IMG/VR virus record: IMGVR_UViG_2563366943_000021
Strand: one strand, 5' to 3'
DNA length: 39,359 nucleotides
Origin: a virus
Lineage: Duplodnaviria; Heunggongvirae; Uroviricota; Caudoviricetes
Part shown: in pieces, positions 3,369-34,148 of the stretch
How positions within the stretch are numbered: the stretch's first letter is position 1
How the letters are laid out: each line of letters opens with the position of its first letter
Translations under genes and position numbers: made by a program
The notes under the pieces: generated by a model
Databases searched by the model: none
Seen by the model: the letters and a program-made list of their open reading frames with translations, nothing else
Told to the model about the DNA's origin: nothing

Positions 3369-3396
3369 ACCCGCAATATTTTGCGGGCTTTTTTTT
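3369..3396 (+). terminator. Plus-strand rho-independent terminator overlapping the tailspike stop codon
   Basis: Stem CCCGCAA / TTGCGGG, loop TATT, followed by 8 T on the plus strand; on the minus strand the hairpin is followed by A-rich sequence. Confidence 0.4.
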
Positions 3397-6300
3397 AACG
3401 TTCTTCCAGAGACTGAACCCGCTCTTTTATCTTATCCATTTCTCTGCGCTGCCATGCTGCCTCGATATAGAATAAGAGATCAGGTCTGACCCCCCATCTA
3501 GATCCTGCTGGCGTTATTTCAACGCGCTCAATGATGTCTTCTATTACCATCACTGGATTATCATCCTCATCAACAATGATGCTCCCGTCATTATCAGTCA
3601 GCGGCATTTCCCTTTGGCCAGTAATGACGTCATCATATACTGCGGGATAATCGTCATAGCAAAGAAAGGCATAGCGGCATGTTGTGCTTTCTTCTTCCAT
3701 GAGTCCGTGAGAAATAAGAACATCACGAAGTTGCTGCGCGATTACACCATGATGTATCCTCGCCCCTTCTTCCCCCTTTATAGCGACAGCGTTCAGCCAT
3801 TTATAAGCGATATACCTGACGTCACCCCAGGCATCCAGCAATGCTTCGTCAGGAGAGACCGGCTCTGTCTTTAATGTTCCGTCACTGGTAACCACAGGAT
3901 TGGAGCCAAGATAAACTGTCGAGAACCTGTTTCCCGGACCACCAAGAGCATTTACATTATCAAGATAAGGTTTAACATCTCCGTTCTCAAAAAGATGTTC
4001 GAGTGCGTTATATACCGCGCGACGTGGAGTACTGCTTCCGGAACCATGCAACGTTATCATTGCACCATCTGCTGAAGACGTTGTTTCACCGCCGCTAACG
4101 ATTAATCTCTGAGCGGTAACATCATCAGACGGTACTTTCTTCGCAATAATGGCGTAATTACCCTCAAGTTTGACTTCCGCGCGAACTTGTCCTGATGTAC
4201 CTGCATGGACAGTCAGTGACTGGACGGCAACATCATCTGTGAAATCAACGGGTACAGGAACCGTCCTCACGCCTGACGTCGACATAAAAGTAGGAAGCGT
4301 TCTGTTAGGAGTGGCTCCGTAGACAAAATCCCTTGAAACAAATTCTTCCTGTTTAATTTTCACCCTGAAACAATACAAATCAGCCGGGTGACCATCGTGA
4401 ACATAAGGATATTTTCTGTTGTTATCCCCTATGCTCCATGGGTTTAGAAAGTCTTCCCCACCGAAAATGTAGTACAGCCAGTTGTCTTTGATACAAACTG
4501 AACCAACACCAACCGCAGAGTTAACTATTCCGCCCTGATAAATCTGATCAGTAACATTAACCCACTCTACATTATCCAGACTCCACTCATTGACGTTAAC
4601 TCTGGTCATAAATGTTCTTGGATAATTTCCTGCATAACGGTTATCAGGTTCTCCTCCTTCCCACTCACCAAATGCGCGCTCACTGCCAAAAATAATCAGC
4701 TCATCGCCAACTTTGGCAAAAGGAAGGTTTGAGTGATGAACATTATTTGGGAAGCGAAGAGAATTCCATGATGTACCTAAATCAGAGCTTCTGTGCAATG
4801 AACTACCGGGTTGAGTACTTAATGTCCCCCTGGTCGTCAGATACAGAATGCCATCATAATATTTTACACATGGCTCAGATGCATTCGCCTCATATTCTAC
4901 AGGTATGCGTCTGCGAACAAAGCTACCAGGAGAACCGAAAGCATCAGAGAAATAGAGTATCCCAAGCTCGCGTGGACCAATATCACCATTATGGTAGCCA
5001 ACAGCAAAACTGTTATCGCTAATCGTCGCAAAACTGTGAATCTCAGTAACAGGAGTGCTTCCGTCAACAAAAGAAGGAATAGTTCCAAGACTGGTTTTTC
5101 TCCATGGTGACGAGTGAAATGATGTGCCAAAACTCCAGTATCTACCCTCGTTATTCTGATCCACATCCTGGGTATTTTGCGTCGTAACTGTAAAGGTATT
5201 TTTATCAATAACAGTAGTCACCGTCATATTCCCGGTAACACCTGTAACACCAGAGTTTGAGAAGTTGACAAAATCACCAGCAAATAATCCGTGATCAGTA
5301 ATGCGAATATAAGCGACTTGCTGATTTGCTGCTTTCGTTATACCACCATAAACGCGAAGGCTGCGACTCATTGGGCGATCCCACAACTCTGCAACCTGCA
5401 GTTTATTTCCTCTCACGGTCCGCGTCTCAATTACAGCAAAAAGGCGATTTCTGACAACCCCCATACTCATGCAGTGATAGTTAACTGTGGGATAGTTTTC
5501 ATGTAAATCTGTAAGCCATTCCGGCGTTGTCCAGGTCTTCCCGTCATCTCCTGAGCGAACCCATGCAACATGGAGGTTATTTACACCATGGCGGTCTCCA
5601 GCCATAAAAGGCGCATAGATGACATTGTCATATACAAACGTTTTATCCTGCGTCCAGGCGTTGTACCACGGTGTATCTGTAATTTTAAATAACTCTCCCT
5701 GGATAAAATCTTCAGAAGCATAAAAAAGAGGCTGGCCCGGTATTCTCTCAAATAAAAAACGAGCATTTTTAAATCGACTGACATCCGGAAGAGTTGATAC
5801 TTTAAAAGTAAGCCCTAATCCGTCAATTTTATAACCTGGAGATGAGGCTTCAAGGCACGCGCTTATTGCAGTGGAATCGTCATTTATACCATCACCAACA
5901 GCTCCAAAATCTTTGGGGCTAATAGCATCACGCATTTTATCCTGGAACGTTCGGTACACAGCCCCAGAACCATACTGAATAAACCAACCAAAACCACCAA
6001 CAACTCCGGCGATTGCAGCATCGACATAATTACGCATTGAGCGATTATTTACAGCGTCCTGCTCAAATGATGGATCTGCAAGGTTAGAAATTTTGTTTTG
6101 CTTTGCATCGTAATATTTTGCAAGCAAAGATGGTTTCATCAATGCACGTCTGAACCACCCAAAACATTGCTGGATCAGCATCGTCAGGTAGTCAAAGGCA
6201 TCTTCATGCACTTCGGGGAAAAATTTTCCCTGATTGCGAAGGTCTGTGTCCTGCACTACATCAAGCACACGATCTATCGTAATTCGCCATCCAGTAGCAA

Positions 6301-6514
6301 GCGGAGACGGAAGAACCACAGAACCGCCACTATAAGTGCCCGCCCCAGTTACCGTATAACCGGTATCCAGGACCAATTCTGTTACGTTCCCGTTCAGGTC
6401 AGACACCTGAACAACCAGGTCTGATTTTCTGAAAATTCGAAAAGTATACGGAAACGATGTCGTAACGCCGTTACCGGTGTATTCGTTGTGGTCAACTTCG
6501 GTTGAGACCGTCAT
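3395..6514 (-). CDS. Tailspike: N-terminal particle-binding domain, Asp-box sialidase-like beta-propeller, C-terminal intramolecular chaperone domain
   Basis: 1039 aa; two Asp-boxes SGDDGKTW (5531-5554) and SSDLGTSW (4766-4789); C-terminal about 150 aa resembles the auto-cleaving chaperone domain of endosialidases; N-terminus resembles epsilon15-type tailspike anchors (recalled). Confidence 0.8.
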   Translation of the reverse strand: MTVSTEVDHNEYTGNGVTTSFPYTFRIFRKSDLVVQVSDLNGNVTELVLDTGYTVTGAGTYSGGSVVLPSPLATGWRITIDRVLDVVQDTDLRNQGKFFPEVHEDAFDYLTMLIQQCFGWFRRALMKPSLLAKYYDAKQNKISNLADPSFEQDAVNNRSMRNYVDAAIAGVVGGFGWFIQYGSGAVYRTFQDKMRDAISPKDFGAVGDGINDDSTAISACLEASSPGYKIDGLGLTFKVSTLPDVSRFKNARFLFERIPGQPLFYASEDFIQGELFKITDTPWYNAWTQDKTFVYDNVIYAPFMAGDRHGVNNLHVAWVRSGDDGKTWTTPEWLTDLHENYPTVNYHCMSMGVVRNRLFAVIETRTVRGNKLQVAELWDRPMSRSLRVYGGITKAANQQVAYIRITDHGLFAGDFVNFSNSGVTGVTGNMTVTTVIDKNTFTVTTQNTQDVDQNNEGRYWSFGTSFHSSPWRKTSLGTIPSFVDGSTPVTEIHSFATISDNSFAVGYHNGDIGPRELGILYFSDAFGSPGSFVRRRIPVEYEANASEPCVKYYDGILYLTTRGTLSTQPGSSLHRSSDLGTSWNSLRFPNNVHHSNLPFAKVGDELIIFGSERAFGEWEGGEPDNRYAGNYPRTFMTRVNVNEWSLDNVEWVNVTDQIYQGGIVNSAVGVGSVCIKDNWLYYIFGGEDFLNPWSIGDNNRKYPYVHDGHPADLYCFRVKIKQEEFVSRDFVYGATPNRTLPTFMSTSGVRTVPVPVDFTDDVAVQSLTVHAGTSGQVRAEVKLEGNYAIIAKKVPSDDVTAQRLIVSGGETTSSADGAMITLHGSGSSTPRRAVYNALEHLFENGDVKPYLDNVNALGGPGNRFSTVYLGSNPVVTSDGTLKTEPVSPDEALLDAWGDVRYIAYKWLNAVAIKGEEGARIHHGVIAQQLRDVLISHGLMEEESTTCRYAFLCYDDYPAVYDDVITGQREMPLTDNDGSIIVDEDDNPVMVIEDIIERVEITPAGSRWGVRPDLLFYIEAAWQRREMDKIKERVQSLEER

Positions 6515-6618
6515 GTTAAATCTCCAGATAGTCGCAGCACCCGTTGCGCCGCATATCTGGTTATTCTATTACCTGAAAAACCATATATGGATAAAAAGAC
6601 TATAAATACCAATAGATA

Positions 6619-6633
6619 TTACCTTTCGGGTAA
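6619..6633. promoter_or_regulatory. Operator site TTACC-TTTCG-GGTAA
   Basis: Perfect 5+5 inverted repeat with 5-bp spacer; intergenic, upstream of LexA box and small antirepressor-domain gene. Confidence 0.6.
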
Positions 6634-6670
6634 TTTGCAAAACGTGCTGGATAGCAAACAAATTATTTGT

Positions 6671-6690
6671 TACTGTATAAACATACAGTT
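6671..6690 (+). promoter_or_regulatory. LexA (SOS) box
   Basis: TACTGTATAAACATACAGTT matches CTGT-N8-ACAG with AT-rich spacer; 20 bp upstream of ORF start at 6710. Confidence 0.65.
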
Positions 6691-6709
6691 ATTGCATGGA
6701 GAAGATAAG

Positions 6710-6967
6710 ATGCAGCAGTATCACTATCCACTGGAAGACGGATTTACCGAAAGGATTCACACGCCGGGAGGCGTCAGGTCACTGGTGGAGGGATCGCACT
6801 TGATGAAATTACTCCGGGATCTCGATAAGGATGGATTTAATGTCGATGGCCCACTTGCCGAACTGACTGCACTGATTAACTACGTCACCAGCTCACAGAT
6901 GTCTATGCAGGATCTGCAAACACATCTCGACTATTGTGCCGAACAATTACGAAAACAAACCAGATAA
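6710..6967 (+). CDS. Small protein paralogous to the C-terminal domain of the antirepressor; candidate SOS-induced antirepressor
   Basis: 85 aa from ATG at 6710 with RBS GGAGAAG; aligns with C-terminus of the 7283-7993 product (HTPGGV/HSPSGV ... AELT); upstream part of the tracked ORF overlaps the operator and LexA box. Confidence 0.55.
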   Translation: MQQYHYPLEDGFTERIHTPGGVRSLVEGSHLMKLLRDLDKDGFNVDGPLAELTALINYVTSSQMSMQDLQTHLDYCAEQLRKQTR

Positions 6968-6970
6968 GGT

Positions 6971-6999
6971 TTGCAATTACCAAATGGAGTGCTTATATT
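6971..6999 (+). promoter_or_regulatory. Sigma70-like promoter (-35 TTGCAA, 17 bp, -10 TATATT) abutting operator
   Basis: Hexamers read directly; the TTACC half-site starts at the last base of the -10. Confidence 0.5.
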
Positions 7000-7127: not shown

Positions 7128-7282
7128 TGCGTTAAGCACAGCTATATCCGAATTATGGTGGGCTGGGCAGGGGTCCGAAAGGACGCCGGTACCACTTAGG
7201 CCGGTACGCCAACCTTGTCCAGTTCACCACCAGTAATTGGCGTTGCGGTGGTGATTAAAATCACTAAGTGGAGATAACCACC

Positions 7283-7993
7283 ATGGCTAATGCTCAAACT
7301 GCCATCTTCAAATTTGAATCTGTAAACCCTATCCGTTCCATCATTATCGATGGCCAACCATGGTTTGTAGCCCAAGACGTTTGTAGTGCGCTGCGTATCC
7401 AAAACGTCACCCAAGCACTTGAAAAACTGGATGATGATGAAAGGTCTATGTTCAACATAGGGCATGAACATCGTGCAATTTTTGACAGCCGAGTAAAAGA
7501 GATCAACATCATCTCCGAGTCAGGCCTCTACACACTGATCCTCCGCTGCCGCGACGCAGTGACACCAGGCACTATCCCCTACCGCTTTCGTAAATGGGTT
7601 ACAGGTGAGGTTCTTCCTCAGATCCGCCGCACCGGAAGCTACATTAAAAACTCGCTCCCGCAGGAAGAACGCATAAAGATGGTTGCCGACCAGGTAGCCA
7701 ACGCCACGGCGTCAGCAGTAATGCAGGCGATGAAGATAGAGAACAAAACCTACAGCGCCCCACTGAAGCCCGGCTACCGCAGCCTGATTCACTCGCCGTC
7801 TGGTGTTCTCGGCCTGACGGAGAACTCACTGCTGATGAATTTGCTGAACCAGTTGCAGGAAGACGGGCACGATGTATCGGGCGCGGCGGCGGAGCTGACC
7901 ACCATGTTCTGCTACATCGTTGGTGTGAGCAAATGCCTGCGTGATATCCAGACGCACGCGGAGTACATCAACGACAAGGCAGGATTCTTCTGA
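7283..7993 (+). CDS. Antirepressor (Bro-N / AntA-like N-terminal domain)
   Basis: N-terminal IFKFE...DGQPWFVAQDVCSAL matches Bro-N/AntA signature; start set at ATG 7283 with RBS GGAG (tracked start is GTG 7268). Confidence 0.7.
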   Translation: MANAQTAIFKFESVNPIRSIIIDGQPWFVAQDVCSALRIQNVTQALEKLDDDERSMFNIGHEHRAIFDSRVKEINIISESGLYTLILRCRDAVTPGTIPYRFRKWVTGEVLPQIRRTGSYIKNSLPQEERIKMVADQVANATASAVMQAMKIENKTYSAPLKPGYRSLIHSPSGVLGLTENSLLMNLLNQLQEDGHDVSGAAAELTTMFCYIVGVSKCLRDIQTHAEYINDKAGFF

Positions 7994-8038: not shown

Positions 8039-8067
8039 TTGCAGACTGGGGGTGAATAGCGTACTAT
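8039..8067 (+). promoter_or_regulatory. Sigma70-like promoter (-35 TTGCAG, 17 bp, -10 TACTAT) abutting operator
   Basis: Same geometry as promoter at 6971-6999. Confidence 0.5.
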
Positions 8068-8081
8068 TACCTTAAAGGTAA
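8067..8081. promoter_or_regulatory. Operator site TTACC-TTAAA-GGTAA
   Basis: Perfect inverted repeat immediately upstream of RBS AGGAGG. Confidence 0.6.
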
Positions 8082-8093
8082 AGGAGGCGCGAT

Positions 8094-8261
8094 ATGACAG
8101 CGTTGAAAAATCGTACTCAGCACAATGAACAAGCCAAGCAATGCTGGGATGTCATTGGAAAAGTTATGCTTGGCCGCGCAAGCAAAGAGCGCGACAAGGA
8201 TATGGTTTACCAGACAGGAACATCTTTCAGCGACTTCAAGGCGGCATTTCGCTCCAAATAG
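8094..8261 (+). CDS. Hypothetical small protein (55 aa), first gene of a two-gene cassette
   Basis: Absent from ORF track (below 60 aa); strong RBS AGGAGG 6 nt before ATG; GC-normal; operator-controlled promoter upstream. Confidence 0.45.
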   Translation: MTALKNRTQHNEQAKQCWDVIGKVMLGRASKERDKDMVYQTGTSFSDFKAAFRSK

Positions 8262-8281
8262 AAGCACATCAGGAGTTTTCC

Positions 8282-8722
8282 TTGAAGTTTAACATTAGAA
8301 TATCTAATAGTTTTCTACATGGGGAAAGCAACACCCCTTTCGCTGTAGACGGACCTTTCCTTACTGATGATGAAATAAAAATCATACAAAGTTTTTTAGA
8401 GGATGTTGCCAATGGAAGGGCGCTTGTTGGAAAAAACAAGCCCTCGTGGGTTGATGATAACCATGATAAAATTCCCGGCTCAGACAATTATGAGCAAGAG
8501 AATTATTGGCATTATCATTGTGGGCCAACATGGTATCCAAACACATTTAAGAATTATACCATTAACTTAAATTTCAACCCTGGCGGAAGGCATTCTAATG
8601 AATGCATTCATTATGCAAAAAATGATAATGAAATTGTCATTGTTGGATTTTCAAGAGAACACATACCTTTCCTTTCATCAGATGGAAACAACAATCCGCT
8701 TTTTAATGATGAAGAAGAATAG
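8282..8722 (+). CDS. Hypothetical AT-rich protein (about 146 aa), second gene of cassette
   Basis: AT-rich relative to neighbours; putative TTG start with RBS AGGAG 6 nt upstream, in frame with tracked ORF 8141-8722; no family recognised. Confidence 0.45.
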   Translation: MKFNIRISNSFLHGESNTPFAVDGPFLTDDEIKIIQSFLEDVANGRALVGKNKPSWVDDNHDKIPGSDNYEQENYWHYHCGPTWYPNTFKNYTINLNFNPGGRHSNECIHYAKNDNEIVIVGFSREHIPFLSSDGNNNPLFNDEEE

Positions 8723-8743
8723 CCCGCGCTGCGGGCTTTTTTG
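8721..8743 (+). terminator. Rho-independent terminator after the cassette
   Basis: Stem AGCCCGC / GCGGGCT, loop GCT, then 6 T. Confidence 0.6.
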
Positions 8744-8814: not shown

Positions 8815-8976
8815 ATGAAAAAAGCATTTGCTGCACTGTTCGTTTTGTTGTCTCTGGTAGCTTCAACTCAGGCCTTTGCCGGTCGTTGTCAGCACGACAG
8901 CGACACTGCTGCTGACGGCTCCCGCTGCGGTGGGTGTTCTGCGGATTCCCGCCCGGGTGGCGGTGGCATTCGTTAA
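8815..8976 (+). CDS. Putative small secreted Cys-containing peptide (53 aa precursor)
   Basis: Internal ATG of tracked ORF gives MKKAFAALFVLLSLVASTQAFA signal peptide then 31 residues with 4 Cys and Gly-rich tail; weak RBS. Confidence 0.3.
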   Translation: MKKAFAALFVLLSLVASTQAFAGRCQHDSDTAADGSRCGGCSADSRPGGGGIR

Positions 8977-8999: not shown

Positions 9000-9011
9000 G
9001 TGACATGTCAC
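9000..9011. repeat. 12-bp perfect palindrome GTGACATGTCAC (copy 1 of 3)
   Basis: Identical 12-mer also at 26720-26731 and 28984-28995; all at gene ends. Confidence 0.7.
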
Positions 9012-9388
9012 GCAACGCAATTATTACCGCGCCATGTAACATTTTTAATAATCTTATCAGCACCAAACTCAACGTAAACAGAGCAACTGAAATGGAGTGT
9101 ATAACCGCCATCAGTTGTTGCGTATGTGTTTGAATATATAGTATTACCAATTAGATTAGACGTAGTATTATACGTTGTGGTTTGTGGTACGTTATAACTA
9201 CCAGAGCTTGAGTAAACATACACTCTGTTTCCATCTGGAGATGTAAGCTCTCCCTGAGGATACCCCCACTGCTGAACCATTGCGTCTATACTCTGCCCGC
9301 GCCACGTAAGCATATTTCTTTCAAACTGTGCAGCTGACTGGCATCCAACGAGAAGCATAAATCCAAAAATCAAAAATACTTTTCTCAT
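9008..9388 (-). CDS. Lipoprotein (126 aa), prophage moron
   Basis: Start moved to internal ATG (MRKVFLIFGFMLLVGC) giving signal peptide plus lipobox LVGC; low GC; own terminator. Confidence 0.55.
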   Translation of the reverse strand: MRKVFLIFGFMLLVGCQSAAQFERNMLTWRGQSIDAMVQQWGYPQGELTSPDGNRVYVYSSSGSYNVPQTTTYNTTSNLIGNTIYSNTYATTDGGYTLHFSCSVYVEFGADKIIKNVTWRGNNCVA

Positions 9389-9607
9389 AATTACCCCTAT
9401 CATGGAAAAACAGCACCAATCCACAAATTAACTAGTTATTTTATTATTCTTCCGAACAATACAATTCCGAATACTACAAAGCCGAACCATGCCGCTGCAC
9501 GCAACAGAGATTCCAATTGAAACCCATTTTTATCAAAATGTATGAATAGCATAAAAACGCTGCACATATTAGTACAATAAAAGTTATTTGAACCATCATA
9601 TCTCCTT

Positions 9608-12082
9608 TTATTGCGGAGTGACATCCTGTGGTCGCCACCAGTATGTCTGGTTAAACTCTTTCTTCGAACGTTGCTCCATTTTACGCAAATAGCCTGGTGA
9701 AAAATACTCCTGCATCTGGTTAAAGATCATGTGATCGAGAGCCGCCTTCAAGTACCAGAGATTCGCACCAGGCATCAAACCTTTCCCCAGCTTCACCAGA
9801 TCACCACCAGTCTGCTCACTCTTCCCTTCCACAGCATTTAACGGTATGCCCTGAGCAATCTTCACTACGTCATCAACCAGACCAGCTACCGGGCCAAGCA
9901 TCGACGCCAGCGCGCCGCTTCCGTACCTAGTGTGATCTGACAATAAAAAGTCACCGTAAAGGCCAAGACCACCACCTTTCAGTAGAGCACCAAGCCAGAA
10001 TTTTGCGGCATCTTCTCCTGTCATCTCTCGAGGATTACGACCAGACGCAAGGTCGTTAAGTTGCTGCGACAAAGCGCCAAGAATGGTCGTACTGGCAATA
10101 AACGTCGCAATATATGCCGCACGCCCACCAGCAGACGGCATACCCATAGCGCGTGACCAGTGACGCATAACAACCGAGATAGGGAACGATTTAAACAGGA
10201 AAACACTTCTCGTTAATTCACCTTTCCATGTTCCACGCTGAATACCAGAACCGGTTATCAGTTGCTCACGTGCTCCCGGTGTAATAACAGCCATATCAAC
10301 TTCTTCAGTTACGGCACCGAGCAGTTTACGCATTGCCTCAAATTTCACGCGTTCAGGCTCACCAAGATGTTTAACTGCTGAATCAGGGATACGCATAATG
10401 CTTTCCGGTGTCAGCATCGTATTATTACCGTTCCCCCAGTCCTCCTGTTTCGCCAGCTTCCATACGCTCCAGTCTGTGTCAGTAATCCCTTTGCTTTTCA
10501 GGATACGAAAATCAGAGTCATCGAGGCTACGAAGGTCTGGTGTCCGTGACACTACTTCTCCCAGGCTTCCCATCATGGTTACGCCATAGGCGCGCTTGTG
10601 CGCATCTGACCATGCTGTAAGCCCACTGGCACGCATTACCGCCGTTGCCGCCCAACGAGACACTGACGGCCCCATATTATCCATCGCCCAGCGGTTAACG
10701 CTGCCAAGTAGAGATTCCATCGCCAGACCAGCGCGGCGCGCCCGCGCAAGTTCTGTACGGTTCGTTGGGTCCATAGCTTCAAGCTGGTTGCGGAATAACT
10801 GGTTCATTGGAAGGTTGGTAACCTTCGCAGACAGATACATGGTTCCAAGATCAGAGAACGATGACAGCAACGCGGATCCGAGTCTGCTGGCAACCAGCCA
10901 GTTGCGGATATTGTCAGACCATCGCGCGATGTGCGGATTCGCTACAGGCTGTGTCTTTCCGGAAATAAAGTTGTACAGATTCTCTGTGTTGTTCGCCAGC
11001 CGCTCGACTTTACCGGTTTTACTCGGGTTAGCTGTTGCCGTTTCTGCCTTCACCTGATCAAGAAGAGAGCGGAAAACATGATCGGGGTTTGGGCCATATG
11101 TTTCCACCAGTGCAATATCTTTACTGATACCTTCCAGGTGACCGACCATGATTTCCCATAGAGAGCGATCGCCATAAAGTTGCTGATATTGCAGATAGGA
11201 ATCTGCATCTTTGAAATGTATCTGTCGTGATGCATTACCACGGTTAGCACGTGCGCCGGAAATTCGCATTCCGGTATCAGTAAGCTTATTCAGCCCACCA
11301 GTAGCGATCGTGTTATAAGCCTCTCCAAGAAATGAAGACAACTCGGCATCGTTCATCAGTTGTCCATCGGCTCGGATATAATATTTGCGATCCAGCTTAC
11401 CTATAACATCGCTAACCCACTTATCCTTTGATACTGCCCCAACCTTTTCCATAGAATGATGTTGAGGGATCCCCCAGTTTTCGAGATAGCCAATGTCCCC
11501 ACCAGCATCATTAAACCGGCGGCGCAGCAGCTCTGTAACTTCTCTCCACGCCTTAGCACCGTTTCTTGCTTTAGCATTGCCAGTATTTTGCCCCCGCATT
11601 TCATATACCAGGTCACGTACGCCCGCTTCATCTTCAAACAGACCAAAAAAGCGAGGATCAACTGCTTCGAATGCCTCCTGCAATTGACTCAATGCATAAT
11701 CACGGGTGGCTTTTGTTCTGGATTCAACAGAGAGGAAATTAGATTTACCGTCTGCATTAAAAGCTATAGTACGGTTAAGAGCGCCAAGTTTCCCATCAGC
11801 CCCTTGATAGCTATTGATAAATTTATCCAATCTCTGACGCGCGGCTATAGTGAGAGCCACACGACGTTTCTTTAATGCCGCTTCTCGCTGTAATTCTTCA
11901 GATGCCAATTGTGCTGCTCGATATAGCCGCTCTGATTCGGAAAGTTGTCGCCACGACATAGGGTCATCACGAGCAATGGAGCGCATATTTCGATAAATGC
12001 GGTCTTCAATGTTCTGTATTTCTCGCGCCGTTAACATGCGCTGCGCCGCCTGCTGAACCGCTTGTATACATTCCTGTCTCAT
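9608..12082 (-). CDS. Internal virion / DNA-ejection protein (824 aa)
   Basis: Large protein in the podovirus structural block between tail tubular genes and tailspike; C-terminal hydrophobic segments; by position analogous to T7 internal core proteins. Confidence 0.6.
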   Translation of the reverse strand: MRQECIQAVQQAAQRMLTAREIQNIEDRIYRNMRSIARDDPMSWRQLSESERLYRAAQLASEELQREAALKKRRVALTIAARQRLDKFINSYQGADGKLGALNRTIAFNADGKSNFLSVESRTKATRDYALSQLQEAFEAVDPRFFGLFEDEAGVRDLVYEMRGQNTGNAKARNGAKAWREVTELLRRRFNDAGGDIGYLENWGIPQHHSMEKVGAVSKDKWVSDVIGKLDRKYYIRADGQLMNDAELSSFLGEAYNTIATGGLNKLTDTGMRISGARANRGNASRQIHFKDADSYLQYQQLYGDRSLWEIMVGHLEGISKDIALVETYGPNPDHVFRSLLDQVKAETATANPSKTGKVERLANNTENLYNFISGKTQPVANPHIARWSDNIRNWLVASRLGSALLSSFSDLGTMYLSAKVTNLPMNQLFRNQLEAMDPTNRTELARARRAGLAMESLLGSVNRWAMDNMGPSVSRWAATAVMRASGLTAWSDAHKRAYGVTMMGSLGEVVSRTPDLRSLDDSDFRILKSKGITDTDWSVWKLAKQEDWGNGNNTMLTPESIMRIPDSAVKHLGEPERVKFEAMRKLLGAVTEEVDMAVITPGAREQLITGSGIQRGTWKGELTRSVFLFKSFPISVVMRHWSRAMGMPSAGGRAAYIATFIASTTILGALSQQLNDLASGRNPREMTGEDAAKFWLGALLKGGGLGLYGDFLLSDHTRYGSGALASMLGPVAGLVDDVVKIAQGIPLNAVEGKSEQTGGDLVKLGKGLMPGANLWYLKAALDHMIFNQMQEYFSPGYLRKMEQRSKKEFNQTYWWRPQDVTPQ

Positions 12083-33321: not shown

Positions 33322-33350
33322 ATATTCACCCATAAGGTAACAAAAATCAA
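33322..33350 (-). promoter_or_regulatory. Putative cro-side promoter (-35 TTGATT, 17 bp, -10 GAATAT) overlapping operator O1
   Basis: Read on reverse complement. Confidence 0.4.
33326..33340. promoter_or_regulatory. Immunity operator O1 TCACC-CATAA-GGTAA (9 of 10)
   Basis: First of three sites in the divergent intergenic region. Confidence 0.55.
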
Positions 33351-33443: not shown

Positions 33444-34028
33444 ATGAAAAGTATCCAGGACGTCCGCAGGCAAAATCTCAACGACTTGATCGACCGTGAA
33501 TTCAATGGTGTTCAGACGCGGATGGCAGAAAAACTTGGAACTCAGGCAAATCTGGTAAACCGCTGGGCTCTTGGCAAGAAGGTTATCGGCGACCAGGTTG
33601 CACGAAAAATTGAAGCTGCCGCCAATAAACCCCGTAACTGGCTTGATATCGATCGCTCGCTTTCTCAGGAAGGTTTTCAGCCTGTCGGCCCAAGCGACAT
33701 TGGTCAGCTGGCGGCTCACAACCTGGAACGCTGGATGAGCGAAAGCCGCGACCTTTCAACGCAGGGAAAACTTCACCGCGCATCCGGCGTCGCCCAGGTG
33801 ACAATCAGTCGCCTGTTAAACAATGAGGTCAGCGTTTCCATTTCCACCCTGGAGAATGTTGCATCCGCATTCGGGCGTCACGGCTATGAATTACTGATTC
33901 ACCCGCACGACCCTGCGACCATCAACTATGACCGCTCGCGCTACGCATTGTTACCCGAAACCGAGAAAGCAAAGATCGAAAGTTACATTGAATTTGTCAT
34001 CAACCAGAACGAAAAAAACAAACAATAA
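33444..34028 (+). CDS. Prophage repressor candidate with two HTH domains and no S24 peptidase domain
   Basis: 194 aa; HTH-like segments (AEKLGTQANLVNRWALG and ASGVAQVTISRLLNNE); no Ser-Lys autocleavage motif; divergent from cro-like gene; own terminator. Confidence 0.6.
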   Translation: MKSIQDVRRQNLNDLIDREFNGVQTRMAEKLGTQANLVNRWALGKKVIGDQVARKIEAAANKPRNWLDIDRSLSQEGFQPVGPSDIGQLAAHNLERWMSESRDLSTQGKLHRASGVAQVTISRLLNNEVSVSISTLENVASAFGRHGYELLIHPHDPATINYDRSRYALLPETEKAKIESYIEFVINQNEKNKQ

Positions 34029-34119: not shown

Positions 34120-34148
34120 TTGACATCAAACCAAATACGCATAATTAT
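34120..34148 (+). promoter_or_regulatory. Early rightward promoter (-35 TTGACA, 17 bp, -10 AATTAT) abutting operator
   Basis: Consensus -35; operator begins at the last base of the -10. Confidence 0.55.

Follow-up and report, generated by a model that had tools for sequence, protein, structure and literature searches.

In this study, we examine a compact two-gene unit at positions 8039-8743 of IMG/VR virus record IMGVR_UViG_2563366943_000021 (Caudoviricetes), a stretch of 39,359 nucleotides (nt) that is referred to throughout as the window. Over the 1.1 kb around the unit, identity is 99.0% with Escherichia phage phiv142-3 (MN187550) and 97% with phage HEMP4, and the window is, as judged by sequence, an epsilon15/phiV10-like Escherichia coli phage of the genus Uetakevirus. 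The unit comprises two small open reading frames (ORFs), designated ORF-A and ORF-B, which we read, with a probability of roughly 0.6, as a type II toxin-antitoxin-like pair of an unnamed family, the exchangeable content of a backbone slot that is gated by a repressor operator. An earlier note on this DNA had named a toxin-antitoxin module as one of several candidates for the locus, and this candidate is strengthened by the predicted RelE/ParE fold and histidine triad of ORF-B, by a small partner gene that accompanies it almost without exception, and by the occurrence of YafO pairs in the same slot of related prophages.

The unit opens on the plus strand with a promoter-like site (8039-8067) composed of a -35 hexamer TTGCAG (8039-8044), a 17-nt spacer, and a -10 hexamer TACTAT (8062-8067). 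This promoter is weak: it agrees with the consensus at 7 of 12 positions, and the promoter scan did not report it. A perfect 7+1+7 inverted repeat, TTACCTT-A-AAGGTAA (8067-8081), begins on the final base of the -10 hexamer and overlaps both the end of that hexamer and the predicted transcription start; its folding as an RNA hairpin was considered and discarded (z only -1.3). The exchangeable cargo begins immediately downstream with a plus-strand Shine-Dalgarno sequence, AGGAGG (8082-8087), located 6 nt 5' of the ATG of ORF-A (8094-8261, plus strand; ATG at 8094, stop codon 8259-8261), which encodes 55 amino acids (aa) and is the predicted partner and putative antitoxin. After a 20-nt spacer between the two genes, which contains a second plus-strand Shine-Dalgarno sequence (AGGAG, 8271-8275) placed 6 nt 5' of a TTG codon, ORF-B follows on the same strand (8282-8722; TTG start, stop codon 8720-8722), encoding a 146-aa predicted RelE/ParE-fold toxin and probable endoribonuclease. 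The right boundary of the slot is an intrinsic terminator on the plus strand (8721-8743; stem AGCCCGC/GCGGGCT, then T6), which shares bases with the ORF-B stop codon; terminator scanning and folding give a 7-bp GC-rich stem (8721-8737) with a free energy of -14.6 kcal/mol (z = -3.0 versus shuffles). The promoter, the two ORFs with their ribosome-binding sites and start codons, and the terminator lie where the earlier note had placed them, and the unit has the layout of type II systems, namely small adjacent co-directional genes that share one promoter and one terminator and are conserved as a pair.

Both ORFs match PHROG families over their full length (ORF-A, PHROG 8607; ORF-B, PHROG 5954), have homologues in many genomes, and are exactly the two coding sequences called by PGAP in E. 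coli chromosomes. The competing frame, a 193-aa ORF from the ATG at 8141, was rejected, being interrupted by stop codons in near-identical relatives in which ORF-A is intact. By these lines of evidence, and by the conserved start codon of ORF-B, ORF-A and ORF-B are real genes rather than chance ORFs. The TTG start of ORF-B is kept in enterobacterial homologues down to 57% identity and is replaced by GTG in one locus and by ATG in Haemophilus.

In base composition, the two genes differ sharply: the GC content is 48.7% for the window, 47.0% for ORF-A (53.6% at third codon positions, GC3), and 35.6% for ORF-B (GC3 30.6%), in agreement with the abrupt fall at the second gene reported earlier. The earlier note had taken this fall to suggest horizontal acquisition of the second gene. 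The breakpoints, however, lie at about 8082 and 8720 and take both genes, and low GC is a feature of the whole ORF-B family; since the two genes are exchanged jointly and the low GC is family-wide, ORF-B was not acquired separately.

Fold and relatives of the two proteins

Relatives of ORF-B, collected by an exhaustive profile search (PHROG 5954), fall into 119 clusters at 50% identity. An AlphaFold2 model of ORF-B built from 27 homologues (predicted local distance difference test, pLDDT, 92.2; predicted template modelling score, pTM, 0.87) has a compact alpha/beta architecture in which N-terminal helices pack on a four-stranded antiparallel sheet, as in the RelE/ParE superfamily, and sequence identity to RelE/ParE-type toxins is 8-19%. 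Foldseek, too, points to these toxin families. The conserved motifs are GKNKPSW, YWHYHCG, IHY, and S..H.PF; in an alignment of 95 sequences, the histidines H77, H79, and H127 show no variation, and conservation is at least 90% at G50, N52, K53, Y78, Y111, and F130. In the model, H77 and H79 are located on strand 75-79, H110 and Y111 on strand 108-113, and H127 three residues past the last strand (117-124). In YafQ, His50 or His63 acts as the general base and His87 as the general acid (PMC4652777), and by our own reading of the YafQ sequence, His87 likewise appears to lie just past the last strand. Given the predicted fold and the invariant histidines, ORF-B is most probably a RelE-fold endoribonuclease toxin, with these histidines as its putative catalytic residues.

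Compared with RelE, YafQ, YoeB, and HigB, to which its identity is within the 8-19% given above, ORF-B is larger by about 55 residues, has in addition a segment at the N-terminus and a long, conserved loop at residues 80-107, and is without a Pfam match. ORF-A is unrelated to the antitoxins RelB, DinJ, YefM, and HigA. A sequence profile search of the Protein Data Bank (PDB) with ORF-B returned chance matches only, and a Foldseek comparison with the viral models of BFVD was uninformative.

The closest parallels are found with YafO, a RelE-related, translation-dependent mRNA interferase (PMC2814082). As in YafN-YafO, the small gene comes first and the toxin gene second at close spacing, and both YafO (132 aa) and ORF-B (146 aa) exceed the classical RelE length. 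The invariant residues in the YafO alignment are H60, H62, H85, Y88, and H109, and the logic of the motifs is alike in the two proteins: AHIH in YafO and WHYH in ORF-B occupy a strand, LVY corresponds to IHY on an aromatic strand, a histidine follows the last strand, and G-R-D..Y..DD is paralleled by G-K-N-K..W..DD. An hhalign comparison places 55 columns collinearly, with GKNKPSW aligned to GRDA..Y and WHYH to AHIH, which is suggestive only. YafO-family pairs also occupy the same slot as ORF-B in sister prophages. When ORF-A was compared with the small protein that accompanies the YafO-like toxin of the slot, no similarity was seen. Membership of ORF-B in the YafO family itself was considered and set aside: ORF-B has no match to PF13957, the YafO model of Pfam, at E up to 1, none of its 95 relatives (0/95) has one at E up to 0.01, hhalign probabilities stay below 2% and hidden Markov model (HMM) scores at or below 10 bits, and ORF-B and the YafO-like toxin found in the slot match in BLASTP at E 1.5. 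Judged by its predicted fold, ORF-B would thus resemble a RelE/YafO-type toxin and is not demonstrably a YafO family member.

A partner gene accompanies ORF-B almost everywhere. In a sample of 98 sequences, comprising 96 related loci drawn from collections of genomes and viral contigs together with phiv142-3 and TL-2011b, a co-directional upstream gene ends between -23 and +31 nt from the ORF-B homologue in 96. The hosts of these partners are prophages of Enterobacterales, Pasteurellaceae, and Neisseriaceae, and a prophage of another, unrelated type likewise carries the pair: in a Haemophilus influenzae myovirus prophage, it lies between the tape-measure gene and the baseplate genes. The partners range from 55 to 211 aa; their C-terminal region of about 45 aa is related among groups, and ORF-A is essentially that domain alone. 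In profile-profile comparison, the enterobacterial short form matches the 99-121-aa form at 96% probability (E 3.5e-9) and the Pasteurellaceae partners at 49.6% (E 1.7e-4), the Pasteurellaceae partners match those of Neisseriaceae at 88.6% (E 2.6e-6), and the 99-121-aa form matches the Neisseriaceae partners at 57% (E 1e-4); homology of the Aeromonas-type partner to the other partner groups is unsupported by this comparison. Because a plain HMM search with the partner domain reaches only 33 enterobacterial loci, the homology of the Pasteurellaceae and Neisseriaceae partners is drawn from the profile-profile comparison. Two frameshifted variants of ORF-A, when looked up, were found only on short, low-coverage metagenome contigs.

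An exchangeable slot and a phage-wide palindrome

In sister prophages, sequence identity with the window runs through the palindrome to about 8081 and resumes at about 8721, at the terminator stem. Between identical promoter-palindrome and terminator boundaries, five cargos were found in related prophages. The first is the ORF-A and ORF-B pair (about 8082-8720). The second, in TL-2011b, consists of a 59-aa ORF and a 181-aa YafO-family toxin (gp44; PF13957, 26.3 bits), and the third, in the sister E. coli prophage L100, of a 108-aa ORF and a 170-aa YafO-like protein (PF13957, 19.7 bits); these two scores served as positive controls for the PF13957 scan, and the toxins of both pairs, in which the small ORFs differ, belong to PHROG 1651. 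The fourth and fifth cargos are two versions of a 210-aa protein of PHROG 1349. Among sister E. coli prophages, the slot spans 4100-4950 in L002, 2545-3411 in L100, 2545-3235 in L101, and 2535-3320 in L102, the last of which bears a second TTACC-N5-GGTAA copy directly 5' of the cargo gene. The alignments place the promoter, palindrome, and terminator in the phage backbone and confine the exchange to the coding cargo. The word cassette, used in the earlier note, is apt in that the unit is bounded exactly by the conserved promoter and terminator, and the mobility across related prophages that the note had proposed to check takes the form of a shared slot with differing cargo. Among 5426 complete E. 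coli genomes, the cassette query was matched, with at least 95% identity at the promoter, in 240, and 77 have at least 80% of the cassette; among the matches listed, five lower-ranked ones cover the first 34-44 nt only, that is, the promoter and palindrome.

This organization recalls the phage morons described by Hendrix and colleagues, which are accessory genes with their own promoter and terminator, often of deviant composition, found in the late regions of temperate phages. Like a moron, the cassette has a promoter and an intrinsic terminator, a low GC content, a position between virion genes, and a variable presence in related phages. Unlike morons, it has a promoter, operator, and terminator that are constant in the backbone, with the cargo alone being exchanged, and its promoter carries the phage's own operator, which probably makes expression dependent on derepression instead of constitutive in the lysogen.

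Defence hotspots likewise present a variable accessory site in which toxin-like cargos alternate. The pair might accordingly serve prophage defence by abortive infection or superinfection exclusion, with ORF-B being freed when an invader disturbs ORF-A. The toxin-antitoxin architecture with a RelE fold is compatible with such a role, and the distribution of the pair across unrelated types of prophage and host suggests a mobile and self-contained function. Against it, neither protein has a match among known defence systems (PADLOC-DB v2) at E up to 1, and the alternative cargos of the slot are likewise without a PADLOC match; moreover, a repressor-type operator predicts low expression in the lysogen, unlike the needs of a standing defence. 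We regard a defence function as improbable, and nothing in the present data speaks for the anti-defence role that had also been suggested for the locus.

The palindrome at the cassette promoter is one instance of a motif, TTACC-N5-GGTAA, that is present in 13 copies in the window (10 exact and 3 with one mismatch) versus 0.63 expected, at 6619, 6999, 8067, 25684, 28874, 28892, 30988, 31050, 32989, 33326, 33374, 34086, and 34148. Copies stand on either side of a gene for a 194-aa helix-turn-helix (HTH) repressor (33444-34028, plus strand), namely at 33326/33374 and 34086/34148, and others are located beside a cro-like gene, ahead of early genes (32989 and 31050/30988), and, in the accessory island, at three units read from the plus strand (6619, 6999, and 8067). 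In three cases, the motif begins at the last base of a -10 hexamer: at the cassette promoter, at 6999 (TTGCAA-17-TATATT), and at 34148 (TTGACA-17-AATTAT). The 194-aa protein matches PHROG transcriptional regulator and repressor families and is a candidate trans-acting factor for 8067-8081; by its position in the immunity region and its length (585 nt), the gene corresponds to orf43 of phiv142-3, whose product (Orf43) is annotated as a putative repressor. TTACC-N5-GGTAA is probably the operator of the phage's CI-type repressor, and the set of copies would probably define a regulon that includes both antirepressor-type genes of the island. A section on operators is absent from the outline of the vB_EcoP_ZX5 paper.

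An operator at +1 of the unit had been noted earlier. The element is real and overlaps the predicted transcription start, but it is not specific to the cassette. As an operator of the antitoxin, the palindrome was rejected, as it persists when the cargo changes and is one of 13 phage-wide copies. Autoregulation by the antitoxin is therefore not indicated, and the DNA-binding antitoxin acting on its own operator, a hallmark of type II systems, is not what is found here.

The accessory island that holds the cassette is bounded on the left by the tailspike gene (3395-6514, minus strand) and on the right by a gene for an 824-aa virion protein (9608-12082, minus strand), and its placement between virion and tailspike genes beside antirepressor genes agrees with what the earlier note described. 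A Bro-N antirepressor gene (7268-7993) adjoins the cassette. The small ORF at 6587-6967 and the C-terminal third of the Bro-N antirepressor match one family, PHROG 450; this ORF looks like a separate, stand-alone copy of the antirepressor C-terminal domain and has its own operator copy at 6619. On the 3' side of the cassette lie a gene for a 53-aa protein that has a signal peptide and a tail rich in Cys and Gly (8815-8976, plus strand; PHROG 14503, 'membrane associated protein') and a gene for a 138-aa protein with a lipoprotein-type signal, LLVGC (9008-9424, minus strand). The tailspike has 1039 aa in the window versus a 709-aa tail fibre encoded at the equivalent place in the otherwise near-identical phiv142-3, which indicates that the receptor-binding module is swapped between the two phages.

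Published data on orf10 of phiv142-3

The same locus has been studied in phiv142-3 under the name orf10. The orf10 region is transcribed in the lysogen, and in chicken serum, orf10 was the second most strongly induced gene (2^4.12-fold), after orf41 (2^4.56) and ahead of orf40 (2^3.68) (PMC7724020). The early genes orf40 and orf41 likewise lie behind an operator copy. Deletion of orf10 left growth in LB normal, reduced serum survival to about 60% of the wild type, and lowered kps transcripts about 2-fold; loads in the blood and heart of chickens were reduced, and complementation was reported (PMC7724020).

The annotated Orf10 product (52 aa, QGF19616.1) maps to window positions 8412-8570, where it is an out-of-frame ORF nested within ORF-B. 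Its frame contains stop codons in homologues at or below 75% identity in which the ORF-B frame is open, and Orf10 was set aside as a gene on account of this unconserved frame. The arms of the published knockout map to 8352-8411 and 8571-8630, and the segment removed corresponds to ORF-B residues 44-97, including GKNKPSW and WHYHCG. As these arms lie inside ORF-B, the orf10 mutant is in effect an ORF-B disruption.

One explanation of these data would dispense with a toxin altogether and take the locus to encode, through Orf10, a 52-aa virulence regulator, reported to raise K1 capsule gene expression and serum resistance, for which the serum, kps, and chicken phenotypes and the reported complementation speak. 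We judge it very improbable. It would require a protein whose frame is interrupted in homologues, and it credits to Orf10 a mutant that lacks part of ORF-B; the phenotypes are, moreover, modest and could equally arise indirectly from the loss of an RNase, and the paper does not give the primers of the complementing clone (PMC7724020).

On the preferred interpretation as a toxin-antitoxin-like pair, the viability of the orf10/ORF-B disruption would be as expected for the loss of a toxin. Transcription of the region, co-induction with operator-proximal early genes, and the tolerated loss of ORF-B all fit a repressor-gated toxin.

The parallel between the serum induction of the cassette and that of orf40 and orf41 also bears on a different assignment, in which the unit is an accessory of the lytic cycle instead of a module for addiction or defence, with ORF-B as an early RNase that, once the prophage is derepressed, reshapes or shuts off host translation and ORF-A as a modulator of its timing or dosage, or as a chaperone, in place of a labile antitoxin. 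Such a role would accord with the phage-wide operator on the cassette start, which is found also at the early promoters around the repressor gene, with an ORF-A that has no DNA-binding domain, and with the location of the pair inside the tail-gene region of Haemophilus prophages. It accords less well with the optional nature of the unit, which is replaced by unrelated cargo in sister prophages and is found in 77 of the 5426 complete E. coli genomes, as is typical of non-essential accessory genes; with sister cargos that are YafO-type toxin-antitoxin pairs; and with the phenotypes of the published deletion in lysogens that had not been deliberately induced (PMC7724020). A lytic-cycle accessory is, in our estimate, rather unlikely.

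Proposed mechanism and biological meaning

In the mechanism that we propose for a toxin-antitoxin-like pair, ORF-B would cut RNA, likely ribosome-bound mRNA as do RelE, YafQ, and YafO, using H77, H79, and H127, and ORF-A, encoded just upstream, would bind and neutralise it. An excess of ORF-A would be favoured by its AGGAGG and ATG, versus the AGGAG, conserved TTG, and AT-rich codons of ORF-B. Transcription would not be autoregulated by the pair; instead, the start of the backbone promoter is covered by the phage-wide operator, to which a CI-type repressor probably binds. The pair would be kept low in the stable lysogen and switched on together with early genes at derepression or infection, with translation shut-off, prophage retention, and exclusion of other phages as candidate roles. 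The competing explanations differ from this one mainly in the biological role.

Several observations weigh against the toxin-antitoxin interpretation. Neither ORF-B nor ORF-A has a match in Pfam, NCBIfam, or PADLOC, no sequence link to characterised toxins was found, and a scan of 95 diverse ORF-B relatives against Pfam found no relevant family. The Foldseek E-values of the ORF-B model are 0.2-1, all above 0.1, and the placement of the histidines in a putative active site is read from the secondary structure of the model alone. Comparison of the ORF-B family with YafO yields hhalign probabilities of 1.8% and 0.6%, and hmmsearch in both directions about 0-10 bits, which is not significant. On the side of the partner, the AlphaFold2 model of ORF-A, the second of the structure predictions that the earlier note had proposed, is mostly helical (helices 2-36 and 45-53) and of modest confidence (pLDDT 72), and neither Pfam and NCBIfam scans nor this two-helix model reveals a DNA-binding domain; a feature of classical type II autoregulation is therefore missing. 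The Pasteurellaceae and Neisseriaceae partners of 160-211 aa (loci L004-L016 and L062-L098; for example, 5438-5995 in L015) have a conserved, signal-peptide-like N-terminus (for example, VVLSAQA/KS), which is a poor fit to a cytoplasmic antitoxin. Furthermore, orf9, the phiv142-3 counterpart of ORF-A, is absent from the induced genes in Table S1 of PMC7724020 even though orf10 is about 17-fold up, which would not be expected of a single operon; possible explanations are a difference in mRNA stability, low read numbers for a 168-nt gene, or an internal start.

A bolder extension of the toxin-antitoxin interpretation, which we consider doubtful, would make the pair a novel, repressor-gated toxin module in which a CI-type repressor, not the antitoxin, sets expression, and a RelE-fold RNase is released at derepression or infection to reprogramme host translation or exclude competitors. 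The partner domain of about 45 aa would then represent a novel antitoxin fold, capable of fusion to N-terminal domains that are exported or membrane-associated, as in Pasteurellaceae, and the module would also underlie the orf10 phenotypes of serum resistance and colonisation in avian pathogenic E. coli. If true, this would imply a mechanism of neutralisation or sensing unseen in classical type II systems.

For PHROG 5954 and PHROG 8607, which are annotated as hypothetical everywhere, the present analysis offers a putative, structure-based function, and it traces the pair through prophages of E. coli, Klebsiella, Serratia, Haemophilus, Actinobacillus, and Neisseriaceae. It also defines in Uetakevirus a precisely bounded, swappable slot in which toxin-type genes accumulate and which can be searched for further ones. 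The virulence phenotype ascribed to orf10 would be reassigned to the disruption of a predicted RelE-fold toxin gene, which alters the reading of the chicken-infection data, and a phage-wide repressor operator is suggested to control an accessory toxin module.

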